64,000 nucleotides of DNA, taken from NCBI GenBank assembly GCA_016432485.1, contig CP066691.1, positions 77,466 through 141,465 of the forward strand. Direction: 5' to 3'. Position 1 is the stretch's first letter. Each line of letters begins with the position of its first letter. Shown here piece by piece: positions 22,125 through 51,145 of the stretch. The translations under genes and the position numbers were made by a program. The notes beneath the pieces were generated by a model that had not been told where the DNA came from, ran no database searches, and saw nothing but the letters and a program-made list of their open reading frames with translations. The stretch is from Candidatus Niyogibacteria bacterium. Lineage in GTDB: Bacteria; Patescibacteriota; Minisyncoccia; HO2-45-28.

Positions 22125-24554
22125 TTATATTTTATGCCCGCCGAATACGGCGCGGAGCGTTGAAAGAATTTTTCCGGTAAATGACGGGCTCTTTTTTGAG
22201 CGTACACGGAAAAGATAAGACCTCTTGATAATTGGCGCGGGAACGCCGAGTTCTTTGGCGGTTTTTACCGTCCATTCTCCTTCTCCTGTTTGAGCCACCA
22301 CGCCAGACGCTTTTTTTAAGTCCTCTCCATACTTTTTGAATCCTTCCTCCAGCCACCCCGTAAGCCGCGAGGTAATAATGCTGTTTTGGTTGTACACACT
22401 CGCGACATCTTTAAGATGAAACTCAAACGGCGCCTTTTTTAATACTGAAAATCCTTCGGCCAGCGCCTGCATCATTCCGTACTCAATGCCGTTATGAATC
22501 ATTTTTGTAAAATGCCCGGCCCCAATTTTTCCCATATATCCGGAGGTCGTATCCGACATGGCGTCAAAAATCGGTTTGATTTTTTCATATATTTTTTTAT
22601 TTCCTCCCGCCATAATAGCAAATTTCCCAAGCTGAATGGAAGTCGGCCCGCCCGATACGCCAACATCAAGAAAATGAATTCCTTTTGCTCCCAATTTTAT
22701 TCCTCGGCGAACAGAGTCCTTATAGAAAGAGTTTCCTCCGTCAATTATTATATCCCCTTTCTTGAGTATCCGCGCGAGGCCTTCTTTTCCGAAAATGATT
22801 TCGTCTACGGGCTTTCCCGCGGGCCTGCCCGCCGTAGCTTTACTTTGCCCGTCCGAAGTCTTTGACGAAGGCGGGGCGGAGGCGGGAACCATAAGCCATA
22901 TAACGCGCGGAGTGGAAAGTTTCTTAACAAATTCCGGAATAGAATACGCGCCGATAATTCCATTTTTTTCAAGTTTTTTCGTAGTATCGGGAAAGTGGTC
23001 CATGCCGACAACGCGCCATCCTTTGGCTGAAAGTCGTATCGCGAGATTAGCGCCCATTTTCCCCAAACCGATAATACCGATCTCGCTCATGCGCGTTTCC
23101 GCGTTTTTATCCCTGACGCTCTGCGTATTTTGCAAGATTGCCGGCCGAGGAGTGGTCCCGGGCTTATATTTTGCGAGCGAAACGGTATTTTTATCCCACG
23201 CGCTTTCGATCGGATCGATAAATTTCCATAGCGCCGCCACCTCCCCGGGCGCTATAAAAAATGCCCGATTGCCTTCCATGGCTGCGTTGAAAATTTTTGC
23301 GTATTCTTCCACATATTGCGCCTTTTCTTTTTTTTCGTACAAAAAGAAAGAGAAGGCGCGCCTTTCAAGGGTTTGTTCAAAACCGGGTTTTTTCATCCAA
23401 AAGTAAATAATTATTTCATCATTTGGTTCAAGCCGAAAAACTATTTTATTTGGCTCGTGCGGTCCGACCTCGCAAAGATGACAAATAGCCGGATGTTTTA
23501 GCGTGAGCACTATTTCTTTACGCGCCTCGGCCATCCGTTTCCCCGCTTCCATGAATATCGGGATTCCTTTCCATCGAGGATAGCGGAGCTCGGTTTTGAG
23601 CGCAAAATATGTATCGGTGTTTGAGGCGGGACGAACTCCTTTAATATTCTCATAACCCCGATATTGCGCGCGATAGGTATTGTTTCGGACTGTTTCGGTT
23701 GTCCAGGGTGCTAAAGTTTCTAAAATTTTTGCGCGGTTTTGCCGGATAGAGTCCGCCTCTTTATTTTTAGGATATTCCATGGCAAGTACCGCAAGCATGA
23801 TTAAAAGATGATTTTGTCCGACATCGCGCAGCGCCCCGACAGCGTCGTAAAAACTCCCGCGCTCTTCCACGCCGATTGATTCATAAAGGCGAATATCAAT
23901 TCGCTCAATCATCGTATTATCCCACGCATTTTCAAAAAGGTTATTGGAAAATCTGAAATTTTCTATTCCCTGCAATATTTCTTTAAAAAGATAGTGGTCA
24001 ATTCTGTAAATCTGTTCCTCTTTGAAATATGAGGAAAGAAGCGACTGGAGCTTCCTCGCGCTTTCGGAGTCCTTTCCAAAAGGTTTTTCAATAAGCAGGC
24101 GGCTCCAGCCAAGATTTCCTCCGCAAGGAAGGTTTAATTTTACTGAGGCGAGATTCTTAAAAATTATCTCGTAAGATGACGGAGGAACGGCAAGATAAAA
24201 TAATTTATTGGCGCAAACACCCCAAGACGATTCGGCGCCCGCTATTTTTTCAAAAAGAATCCGAAAGGATTTTTTGTCCTCAAAAGTTCCGGCATGATAT
24301 GAAAATGTTTCAAAGAAACGCGAAAAATCTCTCTCTTTTATTGCCGCCCCTCCGCGCTTTATAAGGGTTTTACGGATAAATTTTTTAAATTCTTCGCGGG
24401 AAAGATTTCTTCGCGAAAATCCCATCACGGAAAAGCGGTCCGGAAAACGGCCTTGTCGGAAAAGGTGCCATAAAGAGGGAATAATTTTTTTAGCCGCAAG
24501 ATCGCCGGTCGCGCCGAATATGGTTAATATGGTCGGCGAATTTTTAATTATCAC
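22125..24554 (-). CDS. Glucose-6-phosphate dehydrogenase fused to a short-form 6-phosphogluconate dehydrogenase-like domain (zwf-gnd fusion)
   Basis: N-terminus has FGATGDLAAKK and RIDHYLFKE (G6PD). The C-terminal ~320 aa have IGLGKMGANLAIRL and the 6PGDH NAD-binding fold. One continuous ORF of 809 aa, including a ~24-aa palindromic-element insert at 22824-22886. Confidence 0.75.
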   Translation of the reverse strand: MIIKNSPTILTIFGATGDLAAKKIIPSLWHLFRQGRFPDRFSVMGFSRRNLSREEFKKFIRKTLIKRGGAAIKERDFSRFFETFSYHAGTFEDKKSFRILFEKIAGAESSWGVCANKLFYLAVPPSSYEIIFKNLASVKLNLPCGGNLGWSRLLIEKPFGKDSESARKLQSLLSSYFKEEQIYRIDHYLFKEILQGIENFRFSNNLFENAWDNTMIERIDIRLYESIGVEERGSFYDAVGALRDVGQNHLLIMLAVLAMEYPKNKEADSIRQNRAKILETLAPWTTETVRNNTYRAQYRGYENIKGVRPASNTDTYFALKTELRYPRWKGIPIFMEAGKRMAEARKEIVLTLKHPAICHLCEVGPHEPNKIVFRLEPNDEIIIYFWMKKPGFEQTLERRAFSFFLYEKKEKAQYVEEYAKIFNAAMEGNRAFFIAPGEVAALWKFIDPIESAWDKNTVSLAKYKPGTTPRPAILQNTQSVRDKNAETRMSEIGIIGLGKMGANLAIRLSAKGWRVVGMDHFPDTTKKLEKNGIIGAYSIPEFVKKLSTPRVIWLMVPASAPPSSKTSDGQSKATAGRPAGKPVDEIIFGKEGLARILKKGDIIIDGGNSFYKDSVRRGIKLGAKGIHFLDVGVSGGPTSIQLGKFAIMAGGNKKIYEKIKPIFDAMSDTTSGYMGKIGAGHFTKMIHNGIEYGMMQALAEGFSVLKKAPFEFHLKDVASVYNQNSIITSRLTGWLEEGFKKYGEDLKKASGVVAQTGEGEWTVKTAKELGVPAPIIKRSYLFRVRSKKSPSFTGKILSTLRAVFGGHKI

Positions 24555-31928: not shown

Positions 31929-32441
31929 TCAAACCAGTCCCTTATTTTGCTTTAATTTATAAGTTGATATCAATATGAGAAACGCACCGATTGCGGCTAA
32001 CATAAAAGTCAGCGCAAACGGCCAATACATTAAACTTATCAGAACAAGATAAAGAGCGTAAGAAACATGGTCAATCGGCCGACGAGGAAAAATAATTTTT
32101 TTCTCAATAATCATTCTTTTCATAAGCATTACTGCGCCCCAGATTACACCCGGCAAATACAGTAAAGCAAAAATAATATATTCCGATTTTAAAAACATCA
32201 CGAAATAAACTCCGATAAAAAACGCGAGGTCGGCCACGGTATCCAACATTTTTCCCTTAACGCTTTCTACGCGCCAATGCCGAGCCAAATATCCGTCTAA
32301 ACGGTCGCCGACTGCCTGAAATATAATAAAACCCAGAAACAAACCGCTTGCTCCTATCCAAAAATAGGCCGCGGCCGGTACGGCCAATATCAACCTCGCT
32401 AAACTAATGGTGTTGGGAATATATTTTTTAACTTTGTTCAC
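31929..32441 (-). CDS. CDP-alcohol phosphatidyltransferase family protein
   Basis: GDRLDGYLAR…G…DTVAD motif. Confidence 0.7.
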   Translation of the reverse strand: MNKVKKYIPNTISLARLILAVPAAAYFWIGASGLFLGFIIFQAVGDRLDGYLARHWRVESVKGKMLDTVADLAFFIGVYFVMFLKSEYIIFALLYLPGVIWGAVMLMKRMIIEKKIIFPRRPIDHVSYALYLVLISLMYWPFALTFMLAAIGAFLILISTYKLKQNKGLV

Positions 32442-33874
32442 CGGATGTAATACAAAATCTTTAACAATTTTTTAACAAACGGCGTAAGACGGCCGGCCAT
32501 ATGTTCACTGGCGGCTTTTCGATTGATTCGAGAAGCGACAGGATAGGGATATATTTTATCAAACAGGGCGTTAATTTTCAGTCCGGCGCTGTTGGCCAAG
32601 ATTAATTCCTGGACCATTTCTCCGGCATTTTTAGCTGCCATAGTGCCGCCGAGAATTTTTTTGTCAGAAGATAAAAACAGCTTAAGCATTCCGTCCGTGG
32701 ACTCGTCCACAATCGCGCGGTCGTCGTTTTTAAAAGATTTTCTTATCGTAGAATACTTTATCCGTTTTTTGTCTAAATCTTTCTCGCTTAGCCCGAATGT
32801 TGCTATCTCCGGGTCGGTATAAGTAACCCAGGACATTTTGTCGGTTTCCAATCTTTTCTTAAATGGCGAGAAAAAGTTCTTTAAAACAAGTTTTGCGTGC
32901 AATTCCGCCGCGTGGGTAAATTGGTGTTGTCCGGCAACATCGCCCACCAAGTAAATATTTTTATTTGTGGTTTTAAGATAAGAATCAACTTTTATTTTTC
33001 CGTTATCCATTTCAACGCCGGCTTTTTCAAGATTCAGCCCCTCTGTATTTAAAGATCTGCCCATAGCGACAAGCAGAGCGTCAAATTCCAAACTGATTTC
33101 TTTGCCGGTTCCGTCTTTAATAACAATTTTATTCCTATCCACAATCTTTTCCGGCCGGCTGTTCATATAAAACCTCATACCGTCCTCAGAGAGCTGTTTA
33201 AAAATAAAATCGGAAACTTCAGGATCTTCTTTATTTAAAATTGAATCGCCCCGAACCACGACCGAAACGTCTGAACCAAGATATTTAAAGGCCTGGCCGA
33301 GTTCCATTCCAATAGGACCGCTGCCAATAACCACCATTTTTTTAGGAAAGAAATTAATGTCAAAGATTGTTTCATTGGTAAATATGTTTGACGCGTCTTT
33401 GACCCCGGGAATATCCAGCTGTTTTGGGCGCGATCCGGTGGCTATTATAATTTTTCTGGCCTCATATTCTTCTCCGCCAAGAACAACGGCATTAGAAGAA
33501 ATAAATTTAGCCAAACCCAACTTAACGGTAATCCCTTTTTTACTAAGGGCTCGAAAATTTTCATCTTCTCTGATAATGCCCTGCTTTTCTTTTATGTACG
33601 CCGTGACCTTGCCGATATCAACTGCGCCGTTTGTTTTAAGCCCGAATCTCTCAACACCCTTTCCGTTTTTTATAATTCTTGCAACATGAATAAGCGCTTT
33701 TGACGGGACACAACCAAAATTCAAGCAATCGCCGCCGATGTTTCTGTCGCTTTTATCAATTAGAAGCGTCTTGAAACCGGCTTTATTCATAAATGAAGCA
33801 ACATTAAGACCGCCTGAACCAGCGCCAATAACAATAATATCAAAGGTTTTGTTTATAAATTCCCGCACGGGCAA
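32438..33874 (-). CDS. Class I pyridine nucleotide-disulfide oxidoreductase (dihydrolipoyl dehydrogenase/MerA-like)
   Basis: IVIGAGSGG FAD motif and redox-active GGDCLNFGCVPSK. No C-terminal Cys pair. Confidence 0.75.
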   Translation of the reverse strand: MPVREFINKTFDIIVIGAGSGGLNVASFMNKAGFKTLLIDKSDRNIGGDCLNFGCVPSKALIHVARIIKNGKGVERFGLKTNGAVDIGKVTAYIKEKQGIIREDENFRALSKKGITVKLGLAKFISSNAVVLGGEEYEARKIIIATGSRPKQLDIPGVKDASNIFTNETIFDINFFPKKMVVIGSGPIGMELGQAFKYLGSDVSVVVRGDSILNKEDPEVSDFIFKQLSEDGMRFYMNSRPEKIVDRNKIVIKDGTGKEISLEFDALLVAMGRSLNTEGLNLEKAGVEMDNGKIKVDSYLKTTNKNIYLVGDVAGQHQFTHAAELHAKLVLKNFFSPFKKRLETDKMSWVTYTDPEIATFGLSEKDLDKKRIKYSTIRKSFKNDDRAIVDESTDGMLKLFLSSDKKILGGTMAAKNAGEMVQELILANSAGLKINALFDKIYPYPVASRINRKAASEHMAGRLTPFVKKLLKILYYIR

Positions 33875-33877
33875 ATT

Positions 33878-34120
33878 TTATTTTACTCCCAACAAAACAT
33901 CAACTTTTTCTTTGTCAAACCCGACAATTATTTTACCGTCTATTTCCACCGTTGGCGTGGAGAGAAGCCCGCCGTTTTTGGCAATCATTTCTTCTCTTGC
34001 TTTCGCGTCTTCGCCCACATCCTTATTTTCATACCCAAATCCTTTTTCCTGAAGATACGCCTTCAGCATTTTGCAGGAAGGACAGGTGGAAGTTGAGTAA
34101 ATAGTTATTTTGTGTTCCAT
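33878..34120 (-). CDS. Glutaredoxin-like protein (NrdH/Grx, CPSC)
   Basis: ITIYSTSTCPSCKMLK. Paralog of the gene at 37864-38100. Confidence 0.75.
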   Translation of the reverse strand: MEHKITIYSTSTCPSCKMLKAYLQEKGFGYENKDVGEDAKAREEMIAKNGGLLSTPTVEIDGKIIVGFDKEKVDVLLGVK

Positions 34121-34182
34121 AAAATTATATTGATAAGTTTTTAATTTCTAATTGTCGTTAGTTATTTCAGCTCTTCCGGCAT
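34121..34182 (-). promoter_or_regulatory. Upstream region of the glutaredoxin gene containing TAATTTCTAATTG (same 13-mer as at 15608)
   Basis: …gtttttaatttctaattgtcgttagtt…. Confidence 0.3.
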
Positions 34183-34863
34183 TTAGCTCATAGTCGCCTC
34201 TGTGCCGCCCCTGGTACCCACTCTGGCAAAATGCTTCTCCTGAAAAGCTAAGAGTTCGTCCTTGTGGTTTTTTATCAGCATGGCGTAATTCATTAAATTT
34301 CTGGCCGTAACGGCAATCATGGCTTTGGTGGCTTTGTTTTGACGGCGTTTATCCGCGTCTCCATTCATCCCGCCGCCGACTTCGCCCACCCAATACACCG
34401 CGGCTTCGGGCGGTATTACAAATCCAAGCCACTGCAAAAAATTAGACAGATTACCGACGATATGTTGCACACCATCCTCATGTCCCGTTATGACGATACC
34501 GGCCACTTTATGGTAGAGGTCTGATTTGTTGGTCATAACATACGACTCGTCAAAATGAGTCATTCGTTCTATAACGCGCTGAATCAAACTGGATTGCCCG
34601 CCCCACCAAATGGGCGTGGCAAAAATCACGATGTCCGCTTCGCGGATCGCATTAGCCAGACGGGGCCAATCGTCGCCGTCGGACATTTTTTCTAACAAGC
34701 CGACGGGTAAATTCAGATTGGCAAGACGGATTTTCTCTGTGGATATGTCATATTCGTTAAAATGCCTGAACAGGTCGTCAATCAGTTCGTCGGTATTGGA
34801 GGGTTCGTCGCCGGTTTTCAGCGTTCCCAAAAGCGCTAACGCCTTTATATTAAATTTTTTCAT
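34183..34863 (-). CDS. Flavodoxin-like NAD(P)H-dependent FMN reductase family protein
   Basis: IVIFATPIWWGGQSSL motif. Confidence 0.6.
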   Translation of the reverse strand: MKKFNIKALALLGTLKTGDEPSNTDELIDDLFRHFNEYDISTEKIRLANLNLPVGLLEKMSDGDDWPRLANAIREADIVIFATPIWWGGQSSLIQRVIERMTHFDESYVMTNKSDLYHKVAGIVITGHEDGVQHIVGNLSNFLQWLGFVIPPEAAVYWVGEVGGGMNGDADKRRQNKATKAMIAVTARNLMNYAMLIKNHKDELLAFQEKHFARVGTRGGTEATMS

Positions 34864-35289
34864 CTAGATTAATTTTTTAACCTCTTCTTCTAATTGGCCT
34901 TCGACTCCAGGACCAAGAATATTAAAAACAATGTCGCCGTTTTTATCAATTAAGTAATACGCCGGCCAATTTTCCACTTTGTACGCTTTCCAATTTTGCC
35001 TTGCGTTATCGGTAAGCACCGGAAAATCCACTTTCAAAACTTTCATTTGTTTCTTGAGGGCTTCGATGTCCCGCTCAAAAGTTGTTTCCGGAGAATGAAC
35101 ACCAAGCACTATCAACCCCCTGTCTTTGTATTTCTTTTCAATCTCCATAATGCCAGGCAAATCCTGCTGGCACCAAGAGCACATAAAAGTCCAGAATTTA
35201 ATTAAAACCACTTTGCCTTTCAGGTCGGCGAGTTTAAGCGGCTCTGAATTGAGCCATTTTTCGCCATCGGTTATAAATTCCGGCGCCCT
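34864..35289 (-). CDS. Thioredoxin-fold redoxin (AhpC/TSA/TlpA-like, CSWC)
   Basis: KFWTFMCSWCQQDLP. Start set at MRAPEF, 7 nt downstream of the merA-like stop. The longer ORF-track start would overlap merA by ~100 nt. Confidence 0.65.
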   Translation of the reverse strand, partial: RAPEFITDGEKWLNSEPLKLADLKGKVVLIKFWTFMCSWCQQDLPGIMEIEKKYKDRGLIVLGVHSPETTFERDIEALKKQMKVLKVDFPVLTDNARQNWKAYKVENWPAYYLIDKNGDIVFNILGPGVEGQLEEEVKKLI

Positions 35290-35296
35290 CATATAT

Positions 35297-36823
35297 TTAT
35301 TCCGTACAGCAGGAAAGTTTGTTGACATCCTTTCGGAATGACTGCGCGACCCATTTGATTGATTCGGCCATAGTGGGAAAGATAAATGTATTTTCAATTA
35401 TATCATCTAATTTCATACGATGCTTGATAATGAAACTGGCAACGGAAATGATTTCATCGGCTCTGGCGCCCGCCATATGGATACCGACGACTTCCTCGGT
35501 TTTTGAATCAATTACCATTTTAATTAAGCCGTCCGCCGCTTCTAGAATATGCGCCTTTGGCACAAGTTCCAAACTCAAGGTGCGGCAGCTGCATACTAGC
35601 CCCGTTTGCTTGACGATTTGAGCGTCAGTCAGGCCGACGCTCGCCAGCGGCGGGTCGGTGAAGATGGCGTGGGGTGCCGCCCGGAAATCAACTTTGATGC
35701 CCTTATTTTCCAAAAGATTAGACGCGGCAACAAAACCCTCTCTGCCCGCGACGGTTTCCAGTTTAAGATTAACCTCTTCGCCCGACTGATCCACCACATC
35801 GCCGGCGGCAAATATGTGAGGTAGGTCTGTTTGTAGAAATTCATTGGTTGCGACTCCGCCTCTTTCGCCGACACGAACACCGATATGCTCAAGATTTAAT
35901 GATTGGGTATTGGCTCTTACTCCTGATGCAACCAGTATTTTTTCTGCCTCAATAATAATTTCTTTCTTGCCCGCCGTAGCTTTACTGCGTCCTTCCGTAG
36001 CCTTTGGCGAAGGAGGAGCGGAGGCGGGGTCGCCAACCTCGACAGTTGCTTTAATAAGATTGCCGTTATGCTCAACACCCTTGGTTTTAGCGGAAGTATA
36101 AATGGTTGTGCCCTCTTTTTCTAGTTTCTTTTTCAGAAAATCTGAAAGCTCCGGCTCTTCGCGGTCGGCTATTTTGTCCGCATACTGCAAAACCGTAACC
36201 TTCGTTCCGAAACGATTGTAAATTTGGGAAAATTCAAGACCCAACGGCCCCCCGCCCAAAATAATCATTGATTTCGGCAACTCCTTCAAACTCAAGGCCT
36301 CGATATTGGTGAGATACGCGACTTTATCCAGCCCATCAATCGGAGGAATAAAAGTGGAAGAACCGGTTGAAATCAAAAATTTTTCTCCCGTAATTTTCTC
36401 CCCGCCCGCCGTAGCTTTAGCGGAGGCGGGGCCATTTATTTCAACCGTGTGCTCGTCAATAAATTTCGCGTCTCCTTCTTTAAGAGTTACATAAACCAGA
36501 AATTTAAGAGTTCCGGCATACGCCTTTCCCTGAAGTTTGCGGATTAGCGCGTCTTTGGATTCAACGACTTTTTTAAAATCCAAATCCGGCACACTGCCGG
36601 CTACGCCGTCATACTTGCTGTAACGCGCGTTCCAATAGGATTCGGCCACAGTAAGCAATCTTTTTGACGGCATACATCCGACATTAATGCAGGTTCCGCC
36701 CAAAGGAACTTTTCCGCCCGATATCATTAAAGTTTTAATCTTCAAAGAATCCGCCTTGATGGCAGCCGCGAAACCCGCGGCTCCGCCCCCGATGATGATA
36801 AACTGATAGTCGTAATTTTTCAT
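35297..36823 (-). CDS. Mercuric reductase-like pyridine nucleotide-disulfide oxidoreductase (no NmerA domain) carrying two in-frame palindromic-element insertions
   Basis: GGTCINVGCMPSK active site and a C-terminal vicinal Cys pair …KLSCCTE, which is a MerA hallmark. Inserts PASAKATAGG (36402-36432) and ASAPPSPKATEGRSKATAGKK (35969-36029). Confidence 0.65.
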   Translation of the reverse strand: MKNYDYQFIIIGGGAAGFAAAIKADSLKIKTLMISGGKVPLGGTCINVGCMPSKRLLTVAESYWNARYSKYDGVAGSVPDLDFKKVVESKDALIRKLQGKAYAGTLKFLVYVTLKEGDAKFIDEHTVEINGPASAKATAGGEKITGEKFLISTGSSTFIPPIDGLDKVAYLTNIEALSLKELPKSMIILGGGPLGLEFSQIYNRFGTKVTVLQYADKIADREEPELSDFLKKKLEKEGTTIYTSAKTKGVEHNGNLIKATVEVGDPASAPPSPKATEGRSKATAGKKEIIIEAEKILVASGVRANTQSLNLEHIGVRVGERGGVATNEFLQTDLPHIFAAGDVVDQSGEEVNLKLETVAGREGFVAASNLLENKGIKVDFRAAPHAIFTDPPLASVGLTDAQIVKQTGLVCSCRTLSLELVPKAHILEAADGLIKMVIDSKTEEVVGIHMAGARADEIISVASFIIKHRMKLDDIIENTFIFPTMAESIKWVAQSFRKDVNKLSCCTE

Positions 36824-37182
36824 ACTTTTAATCGCCCCTTAAGAATTTGCACCAAGGGAGTTTTCCTTAATTTATAATACACATTGCGGAAATCTCGACG
36901 GCGCTCCACAATGTCCGCTTTTTGTAATTTTTTAAGGGTGTGTGAGACGGCAGAAATGGAAATGCCGACCACCTCGGCAATGTCTCCGACGGACAGTTCC
37001 TTGTGCCGGCACAAAAGATAACAAATTTTCAGACGCGTCGGGTCGCCGACCATATTAAATTCCCGCGCGCAGGCAATAATGGCGTTTTTATCGTTAAGTT
37101 CCTTTTTGAGATTATTTTTATTCCTACTTGAGCTCACGTTCAAATGATAACAAAATAAATATAAAAGTACAACAAGCATCAA
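36820..37182 (-). CDS. ArsR/SmtB-family metalloregulator (CxC in alpha-helix: KICYLLC); start uncertain, may be at MVGDP (37053)
   Basis: wHTH SVGDIAEVVGISISAVSHTLKKL. Overlaps the merA-like start by 4 nt. The N-terminal 43 codons of the ORF contain promoter-like AT-rich sequence. Confidence 0.6.
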   Translation of the reverse strand: MMLVVLLYLFCYHLNVSSSRNKNNLKKELNDKNAIIACAREFNMVGDPTRLKICYLLCRHKELSVGDIAEVVGISISAVSHTLKKLQKADIVERRRDFRNVYYKLRKTPLVQILKGRLKV

Positions 37183-44673: not shown

Positions 44674-44747
44674 GCGGCTATAGCTCAGTTGGTTAGAGCG
44701 CGTCACTGATAATGACGAGGTCCTTGGTTCGAGTCCAAGTAGCCGCA
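44674..44747 (+). tRNA. tRNA-Ile (anticodon GAT)
   Basis: GCGGCTA-TA-GCTC-AGTTGGTTA-GAGC-G-CGTCA-CTGATAA-TGACG-AGGTC-CTTGG-TTCGAGT-CCAAG-TAGCCGC-A. A perfect cloverleaf. Confidence 0.9.
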
Positions 44748-44949: not shown

Positions 44950-45420
44950 TAGCAGAAATTTCTGACACTGACGAACGCCCCGCCGCCCGCCTCCGCTAAC
45001 GCTCCGGCGGCAACCTCGCAGAAAAATATCCTCCGCAATTCTTTTTTTGCGCGCGCCCGATTTTTTCCTAAACAAGGAAGAGGATATTTTCTGCTCGGTT
45101 CCGCCCTCCAAGTATTTGGGCGGAGCGGCGGGGCTTCCATTCGCTTGGACGGCGCGGAATTCCCCCCTTGAACCCCCCTTCCGCCGCGCCCGAGCCGAAG
45201 CGAAGCCCCGTCGCCTGCTCTTTTAAGAGCAGAAGCCAGCAAAAAAGTTTTCTTCACCTTTTAGAAGAAAAAATTTATGGCGCGCGAAAATCAAAAATTG
45301 AGAAGAAAACTTTTTTGCTGGCTGGCGAGCGTCAGCGAGCGGCGGCGGGGCGAAGCGTCAGGCGTTCCGTTCAAAATAGGTTCGGATTATTTTCAGAGTA
45401 CTCCACAAGACTCCAAAATT
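44950..45420. repeat. GC-rich block containing several degenerate copies of the CCGCC…GGCGG palindromic element family
   Basis: For example, ccccgccgcccgcctccgctaacgctccggcgg (44988-45010) is approximately the reverse complement of the 36402 copy. ggagcggcggggc is repeated at 45122 and 45333. The ORFs predicted here (44949..45257, 45168..45437) look spurious. Confidence 0.5.
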
Positions 45421-47760: not shown

Positions 47761-47804
47761 TTACATTATAGCATATTGAGCTTTATTTTGTCCCGTTCCC
47801 TTGT

Positions 47805-47832
47805 CCGCCATAGCTTTAGCGACGGCGGAGCC
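47805..47832. repeat. Copy of the palindromic element (gtccgccatagctttagcgacggcggag) in the 16S 3' trailer
   Basis: Same CCGCC-[AG]TAGCTTTAGCG-GGCGG architecture as the in-gene copies. Confidence 0.5.
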
Positions 47833-48140: not shown

Positions 48141-49122
48141 GGTATTATGGTCTAATATCTTTTCAAATATTTAGCCATGCACCACTGGGCAAGCAGTTTT
48201 CCTGCACCCTAGCGGTTTTCGTAGGTTCGGGCTTTTTTGCCTCGAGCCCTGATTTCTTCGCGTATTTTGATAATTTTCTTAAATCCTTTGTCCGTTAAAT
48301 GCTCTTTCTGTTTTACTTTCAAAACAATTGTTTTGAATCTTTTGTAGACCTCCGCCTTTTTTGCCTGTAAAGGACATTTATCAAGAAACGGAAAAAGAAA
48401 TTCTGTTAAATCCTTGTTGTTTGTAATTTTATATTTTACATGCGGATACCATCCATACCTTTCGTATGAAAGATCATAAATTCGTCCGCACCCAATTGTG
48501 ATTAAGATTCGTTCCAATATTTCTCTGTCATCGGCCCGAACTTCTATTTCAAACTCCGGCCTTATTTCAAGGCCGCGTTTAAGAGTTTTGTGTCTGCCAA
48601 TGCTTACTGAAAACGATCCCTCACCGTCAATAAAACCCGCAACATAGTTAGGATCAAGTTTTTTCCTACGAATTCGTTCCTTCCCAAACGGCGCTTTTAA
48701 TAAGCAGTTTTTGTGGTCGTCATTTTCAGACGACTTTCGTTTGGTACTACGAACTTTGCTGACTTCTTGCGTTGTTTTTGGACGATTGCTCGTTTTCATA
48801 CCTCGAGGTTATTATACCACGAGGACAACGCAAGATCTCCCACGGTAACCCATATATCTGTGTGTATCTATCTCGATGCCACTACACGCGTTATGCATTT
48901 TTTGCGGCGGGATTCTTCCTGTACTCGAGGAATCTCCCGCATAACGCGCCACAAACTGGCATTCAAGCTAAATACTGCTAATTTCACCCTTCGCCACGGC
49001 TCCTCGCGGAGACGGGCTGTGATTTTGCTTCGTTTCTACCGCAAAGAAACGGCTGGACTTCCGAGCGCATAAAACGTTATGTGCTTCGGTCACCAGCTAG
49101 ATACACGGATCGCATGGCGACC
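48141..49122 (-). mobile_element. ~1 kb intron in 16S (E. coli position ~1390-1400) encoding a LAGLIDADG homing endonuclease; probable group I intron
   Basis: The conserved GTACAC|ACCGCCCGTC block is split by ~980 nt containing a sense-strand ORF. Confidence 0.75.
48209..48799 (-). CDS. LAGLIDADG homing endonuclease (intron-encoded)
   Basis: YVAGFIDGEGSF motif. Same strand as the rRNA. Confidence 0.8.
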   Translation of the reverse strand: MKTSNRPKTTQEVSKVRSTKRKSSENDDHKNCLLKAPFGKERIRRKKLDPNYVAGFIDGEGSFSVSIGRHKTLKRGLEIRPEFEIEVRADDREILERILITIGCGRIYDLSYERYGWYPHVKYKITNNKDLTEFLFPFLDKCPLQAKKAEVYKRFKTIVLKVKQKEHLTDKGFKKIIKIREEIRARGKKARTYENR

Positions 49123-49630
49123 CGAGTACAAGACTCGAGAACGTATTCACCGCGGCGTTCTGATCCGCGATTACTAGCGATTCCGGCTTCACGAGGTCAG
49201 GTTGCAGACCTCGATCCGAATTGGGGCCGGCTTTGATGGGATTAGCTCCGCCTTACGGCTTGGCGACCCTTTGAACCGGCCATTGTAGCACGTGTGTAGC
49301 CCAGGGCATCAGAGGGCCATGCTGACTTGGCGTCATCCCCACCTTCCTCCCCGCCCTCTAAGCTCTACTTTAAATCCTCTTTACAAACTTATTGTGTTGA
49401 AGATTTACAACGACCGACGCGGTCATTGTTAAAGCATAGAGGGCGGGGCAGTTTCGCCTGACATATATAACAGGCAATGGGGGTTGCGCTCGTTACCCCA
49501 CTGAAGGGAACAACTCAAGCCACGAGCTGACGACAGCCATGCAGCGCCTGTCCAGCCGTCCTTGTGAGAAAACCTGCCTTTCGGCAAATTGTCGTCTGGA
49601 TTTCAAGCCCTGGTGAGGTTCTTCGCTTAC

Positions 49631-49665
<35 letters not shown>

Positions 49666-49676
49666 AGTCCCCGTCT

Positions 49677-49718
<42 letters not shown>

Positions 49719-49813
49719 GAGGCTTAACGCGTTAGCTTCGACACTCAAAGGGTCGATACTTCGAATATCTAGCCTCCATCGTTTAGGGCGCGGAGTACAA
49801 GGGTATCTACATC

Positions 49814-50200
49814 ATTGTTACTTAAACCGAACTTATTAATCATCGGTTAAGGAGCGAACATTTCTGCCGCTCTCTCCGTGTTACCACGAAGATCGGACTA
49901 TATCATCCCGCCAACATCTATAAAGTTGTGGCGGGCTCGGCGTATAGTCTCTACGGGGTTACTGGAAACTTATACTTGTATTTAGGCAATATATATTTTT
50001 TAACTGCAAACCACAATTTTTTAATTATCGTATATTTGCCATAAACACACGTATAAGTTTCCAGAACTTCCCTCGGTATTTTCCGTTTTTTAAAAACGGA
50101 TTTCTACCGATATAGCCGAGTTTGCATTCCATTGTCGCCAATGGAAGGGACTAGCAGCCAACTTTAATTATATCAATAAAGTTGGATACCCATGCCAATC
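49814..50200 (-). mobile_element. ~390-nt ORF-less intervening sequence in 16S (E. coli position ~790-800); probable intron
   Basis: GGGTATCTAATCC…CGCTTTCG is interrupted. No ORF longer than 60 aa on the rRNA strand. Confidence 0.55.
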
Positions 50201-51042
50201 CTTTTCCATACCCGCGCTTTCGTGTTTCAGAGTCAGGAACGCGCCAGTAGACTGCCTTCGCCTTTGGTGTTCCCCTGGATATCAATGGATTTCACTCCTA
50301 CACCCAGAGTTCCGTCTACCTCTCGCGTCCTCCGAGTTCAATGGTATCCCCTGCATTTTCGCCGTTGGGCGGCGATATTTAACAAAAGACTCATTAAACC
50401 TCCTACACACCCTTTACGCCCAGTAAATCCGGATAACGCTTGGGCTCCTCGTATTACCGCGGCTGCTGGCACGAGGTTAGCAAGCCCTTATTCATGGGAT
50501 ACTGTCACTTGCGTTCATCTCCCATAAAAGCAGTTTACGTCCCGAAGGATTTCTTCCTGCACGCGGCGTCGCTCGATCAGGCTTTCGCCCATTGTCGAAT
50601 ATTCTCGACTGCTGCCACCCGTAGGTGTATGGCCCGTGTCGCAGTGCCATTGGTGGGGGGCGAGCTCTCACTCCCCCTAGCCGTCATAGCCTTGGTAGGC
50701 TTTTACCCTGCCAACAAGCTGATAGCCCGCAGACCTTTCCCAGAGCGTCTTACGACTTTACCCTCACGGGAACTATCGGGAATTAGCCCCGCTTTCGCGG
50801 GGTTATGCCCGTCTCTGGGGTAAGTATCTACGTATTACTACCCCGTCTGCCACTCGCCAACGCTTCGCGTTGGAAGCACGAAATCCTAAATCCGAAATAC
50901 GAAACAAACTCAAAATTACAATACTCAAATTCCAAATGTTTTTAGTTTAGAATTTCGAGTTTGGATATTGTTTCGGATTTCGATATTCGAATTTCGAATT
51001 TCCAGTGCGAAGCACTGGCTCGTACGACTTGCATGCCTTATC

Positions 51043-51145
<103 letters not shown>

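Follow-up and report, generated by a model that had tools for sequence, protein, structure and literature searches.

The stretch of DNA analyzed here, referred to as the window, covers 64,000 nt of a Candidatus Niyogibacteria genome (contig CP066691.1, positions 77,466 to 141,465). It carries a merA-type gene that contains two in-frame blocks, one short and one long, built from a 30-nt hairpin-forming unit (CCCGCC-TYC-GC-TRAA-GC-TWC-GGCGGG-C-ARG). The host gene, the two blocks, and the parts of the long block are located as follows:

35297-36823, minus strand: merA-type host gene, an open reading frame (ORF) encoding a flavoprotein disulfide reductase of 508 aa
36401-36430, minus strand: short form, one 30-nt unit, CCCGCCTCCGCTAAAGCTACGGCGGGC followed by GGG, encoding PASAKATAGG (residues 131-140)
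35966-36028, minus strand: long form, a composite of 63 nt that encodes PASAPPSPKATEGRSKATAGK (residues 266-286)
36018-36028, minus strand: outer unit of the long form, left part (CCCGCCTCCGC), which agrees letter for letter with the opening 11 nt of the short form
35985-36017, minus strand: inner 33-nt unit, TCCTCC-TTC-GCC-AAA-GGC-TAC-GGaAGGA-CGCAG, in the apical loop of the outer unit
35966-35984, minus strand: right part of the outer unit, TAAAGCTACGGCGGGCAAG, which matches the short form except for its last codon

The host protein contains the Pyr_redox_2 and Pyr_redox_dim domains (Pfam) and passes the NCBIfam MerA equivalog TIGR02053 with 472.7 bits against a cut-off of 454.45; the match falls in two stretches with the inserts between them. 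Its best three matches in the PDB were mercuric reductases, the top one being MerA 4ywo, and its C-terminus (...KLSCCTE) aligns with ...SRLSCC of that enzyme. C45 and C50, which form the CxxxxC motif of the FAD domain, do not vary across an alignment of 26 homologs (A1), nor does the C-terminal pair C505-C506. The protein has no N-terminal metal-binding domain and is 100% identical to a 'Candidatus Niyogibacteria' protein at NCBI that is recorded on 7 contigs. It keeps every catalytic signature despite the inserts, and from these features we infer that the gene is a mercuric reductase, with Hg(II) reduction as the predicted activity.

The block boundaries were examined by codon alignment with the orthologous DNA of eight other contigs (homologs are given by P numbers; a slash marks the insertion point). 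Site 1, which holds the short form, falls after the Gly codon and before the Glu codon in a conserved turn, ...VNG/EK.... It is empty (AAC GGT/GAG AAA) in P0010, P0004, and P0014 and filled by exactly 30 nt in the window gene, P0003, and P0048. The coding strand of the short form reads CCC GCC TCC GCT AAA GCT ACG GCG GGC GGG, and its boundaries were fixed by this alignment together with a covariance-model match of 49.8 bits. Site 2, which holds the long form, lies between ...VGD and KEIII... and is empty (GGC/AAA GAA) in P0002, P0003, and P0004; P0007 holds a 30-nt short unit at this site and P0014 a diverged long form. No target-site duplication was found at the three merA sites, where filled and empty sequences differ by a clean block. 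The blocks are precise insertions of 30 nt or 30+33 nt without target-site duplication, and both are multiples of three and open in the frame of the host ORF.

In the 26-homolog alignment, orthologs of 76-81% identity (P0004, P0006, P0009, P0010, P0011, P0012, and P0017; 477-481 aa) have neither insert. In the alignment with MerA 4ywo, a gap falls exactly at PASAKATAGG and two aligned stretches break at the second insert. An AlphaFold model of the host protein had a mean predicted local distance difference test (pLDDT) score of 75. Stretches with a score below 50 include residues 133-139, inside the short insert and between the strands at 126-130 and 142-151, and residues 267-284, inside the long insert and between the strands at 256-264 and 286-293. 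Both inserts are therefore predicted by the model to be the disordered tips of two beta-hairpins. Translated inserts would be marked by the peptides EINGPASAK, ATAGGEK, and VGDPASAPPSPK. The first-pass annotation of this DNA had placed both segments correctly to within 1-3 nt, and its description of them as in-frame sequence encoding loops rich in Ala, Ser, Pro, Lys, Thr, and Gly was borne out by the open frames and the low-pLDDT stretches. The segments did not align as conserved residues of MerA/DLD homologs, an outcome it had set against an insertion, as the 76-81% orthologs lack them and 4ywo is gapped there.

Sequence comparison indicates that the element is far better conserved than its host gene. 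P0048, whose protein is 44% identical to that of the window, has the unit at the codon boundary used in the window gene; 27 of its 30 nt match the window copy, and the flanking codons vary freely. P0047, P0048, and P0059 make up one clade that shares the unit; in P0048 and P0059, which are 79% identical, it differs solely in the tail and at the positions that are polymorphic throughout the family (Y, R, and W). P0019 holds the unit in reverse orientation in a third loop (LARRSLGEAG). Other short GC-rich in-frame inserts, such as (H/R/P)STSSGQ(A/V), PEGV..PYGAG, VSPVRSRARDEVASPEDRGAATSNG, NLPAGRQG, and VNPHTKNFGGG, occur in the same or other loops of P0002, P0005, P0007, P0008, P0013, P0015, P0016, P0018, P0019, P0020, and P0003 (alignment A1), suggesting that several distinct mini-insert families may act in these genomes. 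Since the loops carry the element, another short insert, or, in most orthologs, nothing, a few permissive loops appear to have been struck repeatedly.

The unit consists of a 27-nt core and a 3-nt tail. Its parts are a 6-bp GC stem (CCCGCC/GGCGGG), a conserved 3x3 internal loop in which TYC lies opposite TWC, an apical stem-loop (GC-TRAA-GC), and the 3' tail (C-ARG). The consensus of 58 distinct copies was CCCGCC TTC GC TAAA GC TWC GGCGGG C ARG, in which one frame per strand carries a stop. The four central bases, which were left free in the search pattern, were nearly always GCTA or GCTG. A covariance model built from these 58 copies was applied to 100 loci, and covariation was measured on 92 distinct copies. 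The outer helix was 98.9% paired in the 92 copies, in an alignment fitted to the covariance model, which favors pairing. Five of its six pairs showed changes on both sides, values that were reached in 0 of 500 shuffles, and G-U intermediates were absent among about 540 cells. The short form folded better than its shuffled versions (DNA z = -2.9, plus strand), but the long forms did not (z from -0.9 to +0.3). A hairpin in the long form is accepted because of the compensatory changes and not because of folding energy. The description of the element as palindromic likewise needs qualifying, since a GC stem of 6-7 bp and an apical stem of 2-3 bp are present, but conserved mismatches lie between them and the element is only partly palindromic. 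No Rfam family was found at the elements in a gathering-threshold scan of the whole window or in a permissive scan of 35900-36500.

In the long form, 33 nt interrupt a 30-nt unit between ...CCGC and TAAAGC..., and these 33 nt are a diverged relative of the unit nested in its apical loop. The inner units follow the pattern stem-TTC-GYY-AAA-GRC-TWC-GGa-stem-tail. A covariance model made from short units only found the inner unit of a second long copy, in a glucose-6-phosphate dehydrogenase (G6PD) fusion gene, as a separate match (22844-22875; 21.7 bits, E 0.027). The merA inner unit matched weakly (10.5 bits, E 4.3). When the inner units of merA, G6PD, and the metagenome locus L173 were aligned without gaps, and hence without fitting to the structure, 27 of 27 cells were paired and four of nine pairs were compensatory; this pairing collapsed once the register was slid. 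Given the weak model score, it is this three-way comparison that places the merA inner unit in the family. The nested, core-plus-insert arrangement seen in the first-pass annotation thus stands, with the insert identified as a diverged member of the same hairpin family and not as foreign sequence. Metagenome contigs, including L173, L171, and L163, show further nesting at one loop position in both orientations, and head-to-tail arrays with a 30-nt period also occur in such contigs.

Within the window, the shared arm GCCCGCCGTAGC occurred three times compared to 0.20 expected and the shared arm AGCGGAGGCGGGG four times compared to 0.07 expected, and no shuffle reached either count. The copies outside merA are the following:

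22824-22886, minus strand: second 63-nt nested copy, encoding PASAPPSSKTSDGQSKATAGR within a G6PD-6PGD fusion gene (22125-24554, minus strand)
47800-47829, minus strand: intergenic 30-nt copy, TCCGCCGTCGCTAAAGCTATGGCGGACAAG, with the outermost pair changed from C-G to T-A
44986-45014, plus strand: possible degenerate member with 4 mismatches (19.8 bits, E 0.065), of uncertain membership

The copy in the G6PD-6PGD gene agrees with the merA copies in orientation and frame. The intergenic copy at 47800-47829 scored 43.1 bits with the covariance model, in which it was itself one of the 58 seed sequences. Three of the four secure copies lie inside ORFs, the fifth (44986-45014) being doubtful.

The doubtful copy forms one arm of a 421-nt compound palindrome, a multiply nested intergenic stretch at 44955-45375, downstream of a tRNA gene (44674-44747). 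Its RNA minimum free energy was -200.7 kcal/mol compared to -143 for shuffled sequence (z = -11), and no Rfam family fits it, with spurious microRNA-type matches only. Either piled-up insertions of hairpins into hairpins or a structured RNA of no known family could account for it.

An exact-pattern scan of one genome per species, which counted exact matches only, yielded at least 120 loci of 8 kb each, and a second scan was made of metagenome contigs (loci from elsewhere are given by L numbers). Hosts among the matches listed were many Patescibacteria, Alpha-, Gamma-, and Deltaproteobacteria, Acidobacteriota, Planctomycetota, Nitrospiraceae, Verrucomicrobia, Methylomirabilis, Anaerolineaceae, and Bacteroidota, the last including an isolate, Chryseolinea serpens DSM 24574. 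The hairpin family is not limited to this genome or to bacteria of the Candidate Phyla Radiation (CPR). Many of the host genomes were metagenome-assembled; the long contigs and the one isolate weigh against mis-binning as a full explanation. C. serpens is a cultured organism in which experimental study of the element would be feasible. In its locus, partial and permuted copies (...cttgcccgccgtagctttagcgaaggtgggagctttagcgaaggtgggagctttaagcgaagacggg...) are clustered beside the exact copy (L073:4084-4290).

Coding calls were limited to low-GC loci (GC < 50%) because high-GC DNA yields spurious long ORFs, as in L044. Among the matches listed, 26 of 54 copies in low-GC loci fell within ORFs of 150 aa or longer, and half of these (13) used the frame that gives P-A-F/S-A-K/E-A-S/T-A-G-K. 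Confirmed host proteins in other organisms are a class I aminoacyl-tRNA synthetase, an ABC-F ATPase, an AMP-binding enzyme, an aminotransferase, a glycosyltransferase, and a glucose/sorbosone dehydrogenase. Copies in these unrelated enzymes occur in both orientations and mostly in the same reading frame. A set of 2.9 million viral contigs gave only three exact matches, and 50,697 phage records gave none. Plasmid matches were partial, in GC-rich Thermus and Ralstonia DNA, and were not counted as members.

Another set of copies lies in or beside genes for stable RNAs. Five overlap the first 4-5 nt of tRNA-Gly(GCC) or tRNA-Pro genes (L019:6383-6409, L010:2180-2206, L093:7923-7949, L074:5437-5463, and L041:847-873), where the 3' arm GGCGGG shares bases with the acceptor stem. 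Five of the six copies just upstream of tRNA genes are on the strand opposite the tRNA; the sixth (L090) is 4 nt upstream of tRNA-Val on the same strand. After the tRNA-overlapping copies comes ARG-CCCG (mostly CCCGC), and an alternative hairpin could form between it and the GGCGGG arm. Two copies come 3-5 nt after tRNA-Ser, a distance that depends on the tRNA caller, and one lies about 80 nt past the 3' end of a 16S gene. In one Desulfuromonadales and one Geobacter genome, the 27-mer GCCCGCCGAAGCUUUAGCGAAGGCGGG is the P12 hairpin of RNase P RNA (L052:1619-2013 and L016:2586-2977). The Rfam consensus has CCGCC/GGCGG as the base of P12, so part of this match is native and only the apical GAAGCUUUAGCGAA is diagnostic. 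The P3 hairpin of the same RNase P RNAs (GCCCGCCGUCGCCAAGGCUAUGGCGGG) closely resembles the intergenic window copy at 47800-47829, and by sequence both variable peripheral helices of this one ribozyme look like members of the hairpin family. Ten of the 11 copies in stable-RNA contexts have the same orientation (five at tRNA-Gly/Pro, two after tRNA-Ser, two in RNase P P12, and one after 16S).

The 27-mer is also found at the center of another, larger palindrome in two alphaproteobacteria (...ccttcgagacg[27-mer]tcctcaggatgagg...; L011:6460-6560 and L036:3390-3490). This palindrome looks like a common alphaproteobacterial repeat and thus like another case of a hairpin in a hairpin. In five metagenome contigs with a GC content of 0.62-0.68 (L132, L135, L162, L164, and L175), the loop of the element holds a 30-nt insert that does not belong to the family (GAAGCCCWTGRTAGGYYCGTC...). 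The flanks of this locus are conserved (ccggttt ... gaagcgagg), and the locus may encode a structured RNA or leader that is orthologous among related high-GC bacteria.

The reading we favor, at a probability of roughly 0.6, is that the merA segments arose when copies of a miniature, dispersed, hairpin-forming repeat entered a working merA-type gene; the repeat would survive only where it is tolerated. Spread would be by copy and paste, driven by a factor encoded elsewhere or by host replication or repair. By analogy with IS200/IS605, REP/RAYT, and other HUH-type systems, recognition of a single-stranded DNA hairpin or template switching would be suggested by the conserved mismatches, the asymmetry of the 3' tail, the missing duplication, and the bias toward hairpin loops. 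Selection would then keep only insertions whose length is divisible by three, that are open in frame, and that lie in tolerant surface loops, and such a filter would explain why the same two merA loops were hit repeatedly. A length of 10 codons never shifts the frame, and surface loops and peripheral RNA helices may be the only places that tolerate an extra hairpin. In MerA, the element would be a passenger that forms flexible loops of 10 or 21 residues without a function of their own.

A broader proposal, which we regard as tentative and give somewhat less than even odds, is that the 30-nt hairpin is a pan-bacterial mobile element among the smallest known, near-invariant over at least 10 phyla and moved in trans by putative conserved machinery. 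These phyla include Patescibacteria, Pseudomonadota, Acidobacteriota, Bacteroidota, Planctomycetota, Nitrospirota, Verrucomicrobiota, and Desulfobacterota. Such an element would insert without duplication into the single-stranded loops of its own copies, into codons of surface loops, and into the peripheral helices and borders of stable RNAs. A length of 10 codons and four or five open frames of the six would then adapt it to life inside genes.

Several observations weigh against a mobile repeat. No protein family occurred in more than seven of 120 loci when 3301 ORFs were compared all against all for a linked transposase or other gene. No upstream target motif or base preference was found over 42 copies in low-GC loci, where the only downstream signal was the element's own ARG tail, often followed by CCCGC. 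With no mobilizing enzyme, target duplication, or target motif seen, mobility is inferred from the distribution alone. Copy number appears low, with about five units in the 64 kb of the window and usually one or two exact copies per 8-kb locus elsewhere, and selfish repeats usually amplify more than this. As described above, the long forms fold no better than shuffled sequence. The two merA clades, at 44% identity, share an exact codon boundary, which needs a target preference, very strong filtering, or an ancient insertion followed by many precise losses. Across phyla, 27 nt are nearly identical, unpaired nucleotides included, and functional constraint accounts for this more readily than neutral selfish DNA does; the bias of 10 of 11 copies toward one orientation in stable-RNA contexts hints at a role at the RNA level.

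These last points lead to the strongest alternative, which we consider unlikely, though it fares best among the rivals. The hairpin could be a functional nucleic-acid module under selection, such as a binding or processing site for a widely conserved protein or RNase or a very stable structural hairpin, that belongs mainly to stable RNAs and their borders; the copies in genes would be by-products or would act on mRNA through translation pausing or stability. Consistent with this, the unpaired TYC, TRAA, and TWC are conserved like the stem across phyla, even where the pattern was free, and diverged subfamilies compensate changes in the stem yet keep TTC...AAA...TWC. Ten of the 11 stable-RNA transcripts would carry GCCCGCC-GWA-GC-UUUA-GC-GAA-GGCGGG, and the internal loop of such a transcript could form tandem G-A pairs. 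The apparently few copies per genome and their identity across phyla also fit. However, a functional module leaves unexplained the in-frame insertions, in both orientations, in the middle of enzymes that are unrelated to one another, the presence and absence of the unit among close orthologs, and the self-nesting and head-to-tail 30-nt arrays. No Rfam family matches. The lack of G-U pairs in the outer helix fits DNA pairing or arm-to-arm copying better than it fits selection on RNA, on small numbers. The two explanations are compatible, since RNAs may tolerate or co-opt a hairpin that is mobile.

Selection at the protein level is much less probable. According to this explanation, the inserts are lineage-specific loops kept as a flexible linker, an interaction or localization tag, or a protease site, and the likeness of the DNA is secondary. 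The preference for frame 0, used by 13 of 26 coding copies and by all three coding copies in the window, could be taken in its support, as could the small, polar, flexible peptide which that frame gives. However, the same DNA also turns up between genes, in genes for RNAs, and in other orientations and frames. The 10-residue peptides of P0048 and P0059 differ at four positions, which correspond to the polymorphic Y, R, and W, in proteins that are 79% identical, so the peptide evolves faster than the protein around it. Both inserts are also predicted to be disordered on hairpin tips, and most orthologs do without them.

Removal of the blocks before or during translation, in the manner of an intron or a bypass, is slightly less probable again. 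The genome tolerates self-splicing introns, as seen from the group I intron in its 16S gene, and ribosome-bypassed GC-rich hairpin insertions are known from yeast mitochondria. Still, every coding copy examined was a multiple of three and open in frame, a constraint that would be needless if the blocks were removed, and there was neither an intron-like structure nor an Rfam match. An assembly or sequencing artefact or a chance low-complexity similarity is effectively excluded even for a metagenome-assembled genome, given the identical protein from 7 contigs of several sources, the orthologs from independent samples with the element at the same sites, the isolate C. serpens DSM 24574, and a chance expectation of about 0.

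The merA gene is part of a redox cluster on the minus strand (32438-37182), whose other members are the following:

36820-37182, minus strand: ArsR-family regulator, directly upstream of merA
34864-35397, minus strand: AhpC/TSA-type redoxin
34183-34863, minus strand: FMN reductase
33878-34120, minus strand: glutaredoxin-like protein
32438-33874, minus strand: second pyridine nucleotide-disulfide oxidoreductase

No exact gapless copy of the 30-nt element was found in the other genes of this cluster. Elsewhere in the window, the 16S rRNA gene (49012-51088) is 2077 nt long and contains a group I intron (49874-50189) and further extra sequence. Group I introns in 16S genes are common in CPR bacteria. 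A 60-nt imperfect inverted repeat lies near the 5' end of the 16S gene (50856-51019).

The consequence of the insertions for the merA gene itself is probably nil. If the favored reading is true, some of the short, odd, low-complexity inserts that lengthen and muddle protein alignments in CPR and other environmental bacteria (such as PAFAKASAGK, ARRSFSEGG, and PPSLKLRRA) would have a simple origin at the DNA level, and such peptide inserts could be masked in alignments or used as markers. A 30-nt element would have crossed phyla with its sequence kept, with the conserved mismatches pointing to a specific recognizer. The insertions would also be a natural test of which loops, in MerA, aminoacyl-tRNA synthetases, and ABC-F proteins, accept 10-21 extra residues.

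A literature search by topic (CPR, Patescibacteria, or Parcubacteria combined with palindromic or REP) found no description of the element; coverage was incomplete and an earlier description is possible. In a full-text search, six 12-mers taken from the element matched nothing relevant, the only results being fungal ITS primers, a TnpB probe, and an IS target list. Among systems that have been described, small GC-rich hairpins that invade AT-richer genomes are known from mitochondria as repetitive hairpin-forming elements (RHEs) and GC clusters, and in this the present element resembles those of sponges (PMC2800124). The compartment, sequences, and host range are different. We know of no evidence for shared ancestry of the element with the mitochondrial hairpins. 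Reportedly, SDR1-8 of Nostoc, described by Elhai and co-workers in 2008, are 21-27 nt long, form compensated hairpins, are nested in their own copies, and have neither an encoded function nor a described mobilizing machinery; they are said to occur in one cyanobacterial subgroup, often within heptamer repeats or HIP1. As far as these accounts go, the unit size (27-nt core and 3-nt tail), the compensatory hairpin, and the self-nesting are alike, but the hosts here are not cyanobacteria, the insertions in enzymes are in frame, and the distribution crosses phyla. The present element would thus be an analogue of the Nostoc repeats and not one of them.

[quoted passage not shown] The element is likewise short and non-autonomous with inverted-repeat ends, and MITEs can create in-frame fusions, but neither a duplication nor a parent IS was seen here. 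REP and REPIN sequences are imperfect GC-rich hairpins of 20-40 nt mobilized by RAYT, an IS200/IS605-like Y1 transposase; they are extragenic, high-copy, and species-specific, carry a GTAG or CGTC end tag, and flank the RAYT gene (PMC3116915, PMC3733652). The GC-rich imperfect hairpin, the tandem and inverted clusters, the lack of a target duplication, and the combination of hairpin and tail, as in an HUH-type single-stranded substrate, are shared with them. In contrast to REPs, many copies are intragenic (three of the four secure copies in the window and 26 of 54 in low-GC loci), copy number appears low, and the G(T/A)AG of the complementary strand is found 7 nt into the stem, within the internal loop, and not at the foot of the stem. 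The comparison of ORFs across the 120 8-kb loci gave no link to a RAYT, as no protein family exceeded seven loci.

The Rickettsia palindromic elements (RPEs; Ogata et al. 2000/2002) are, as a later source summarizes them, palindromic repeats that lie in frame in unrelated housekeeping genes and are translated (PMC10969869). The same source gives their length as about 100-150 bp, with a conserved peptide of 30-50 residues, and their hosts as Rickettsia and close relatives only (PMC10969869). The present element is RPE-like in its in-frame insertion into unrelated protein genes at fold-tolerant sites with no evident transposase or target duplication. RPEs also occur in RNA genes. Judged against these descriptions, the element is set apart by its 30-nt unit (63 nt when nested), which is about five times smaller, and by its occurrence in many phyla, near-invariant sequence, self-nesting, and tandem arrays. 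It is apparently an unusually small, widespread, and undescribed insertion element.

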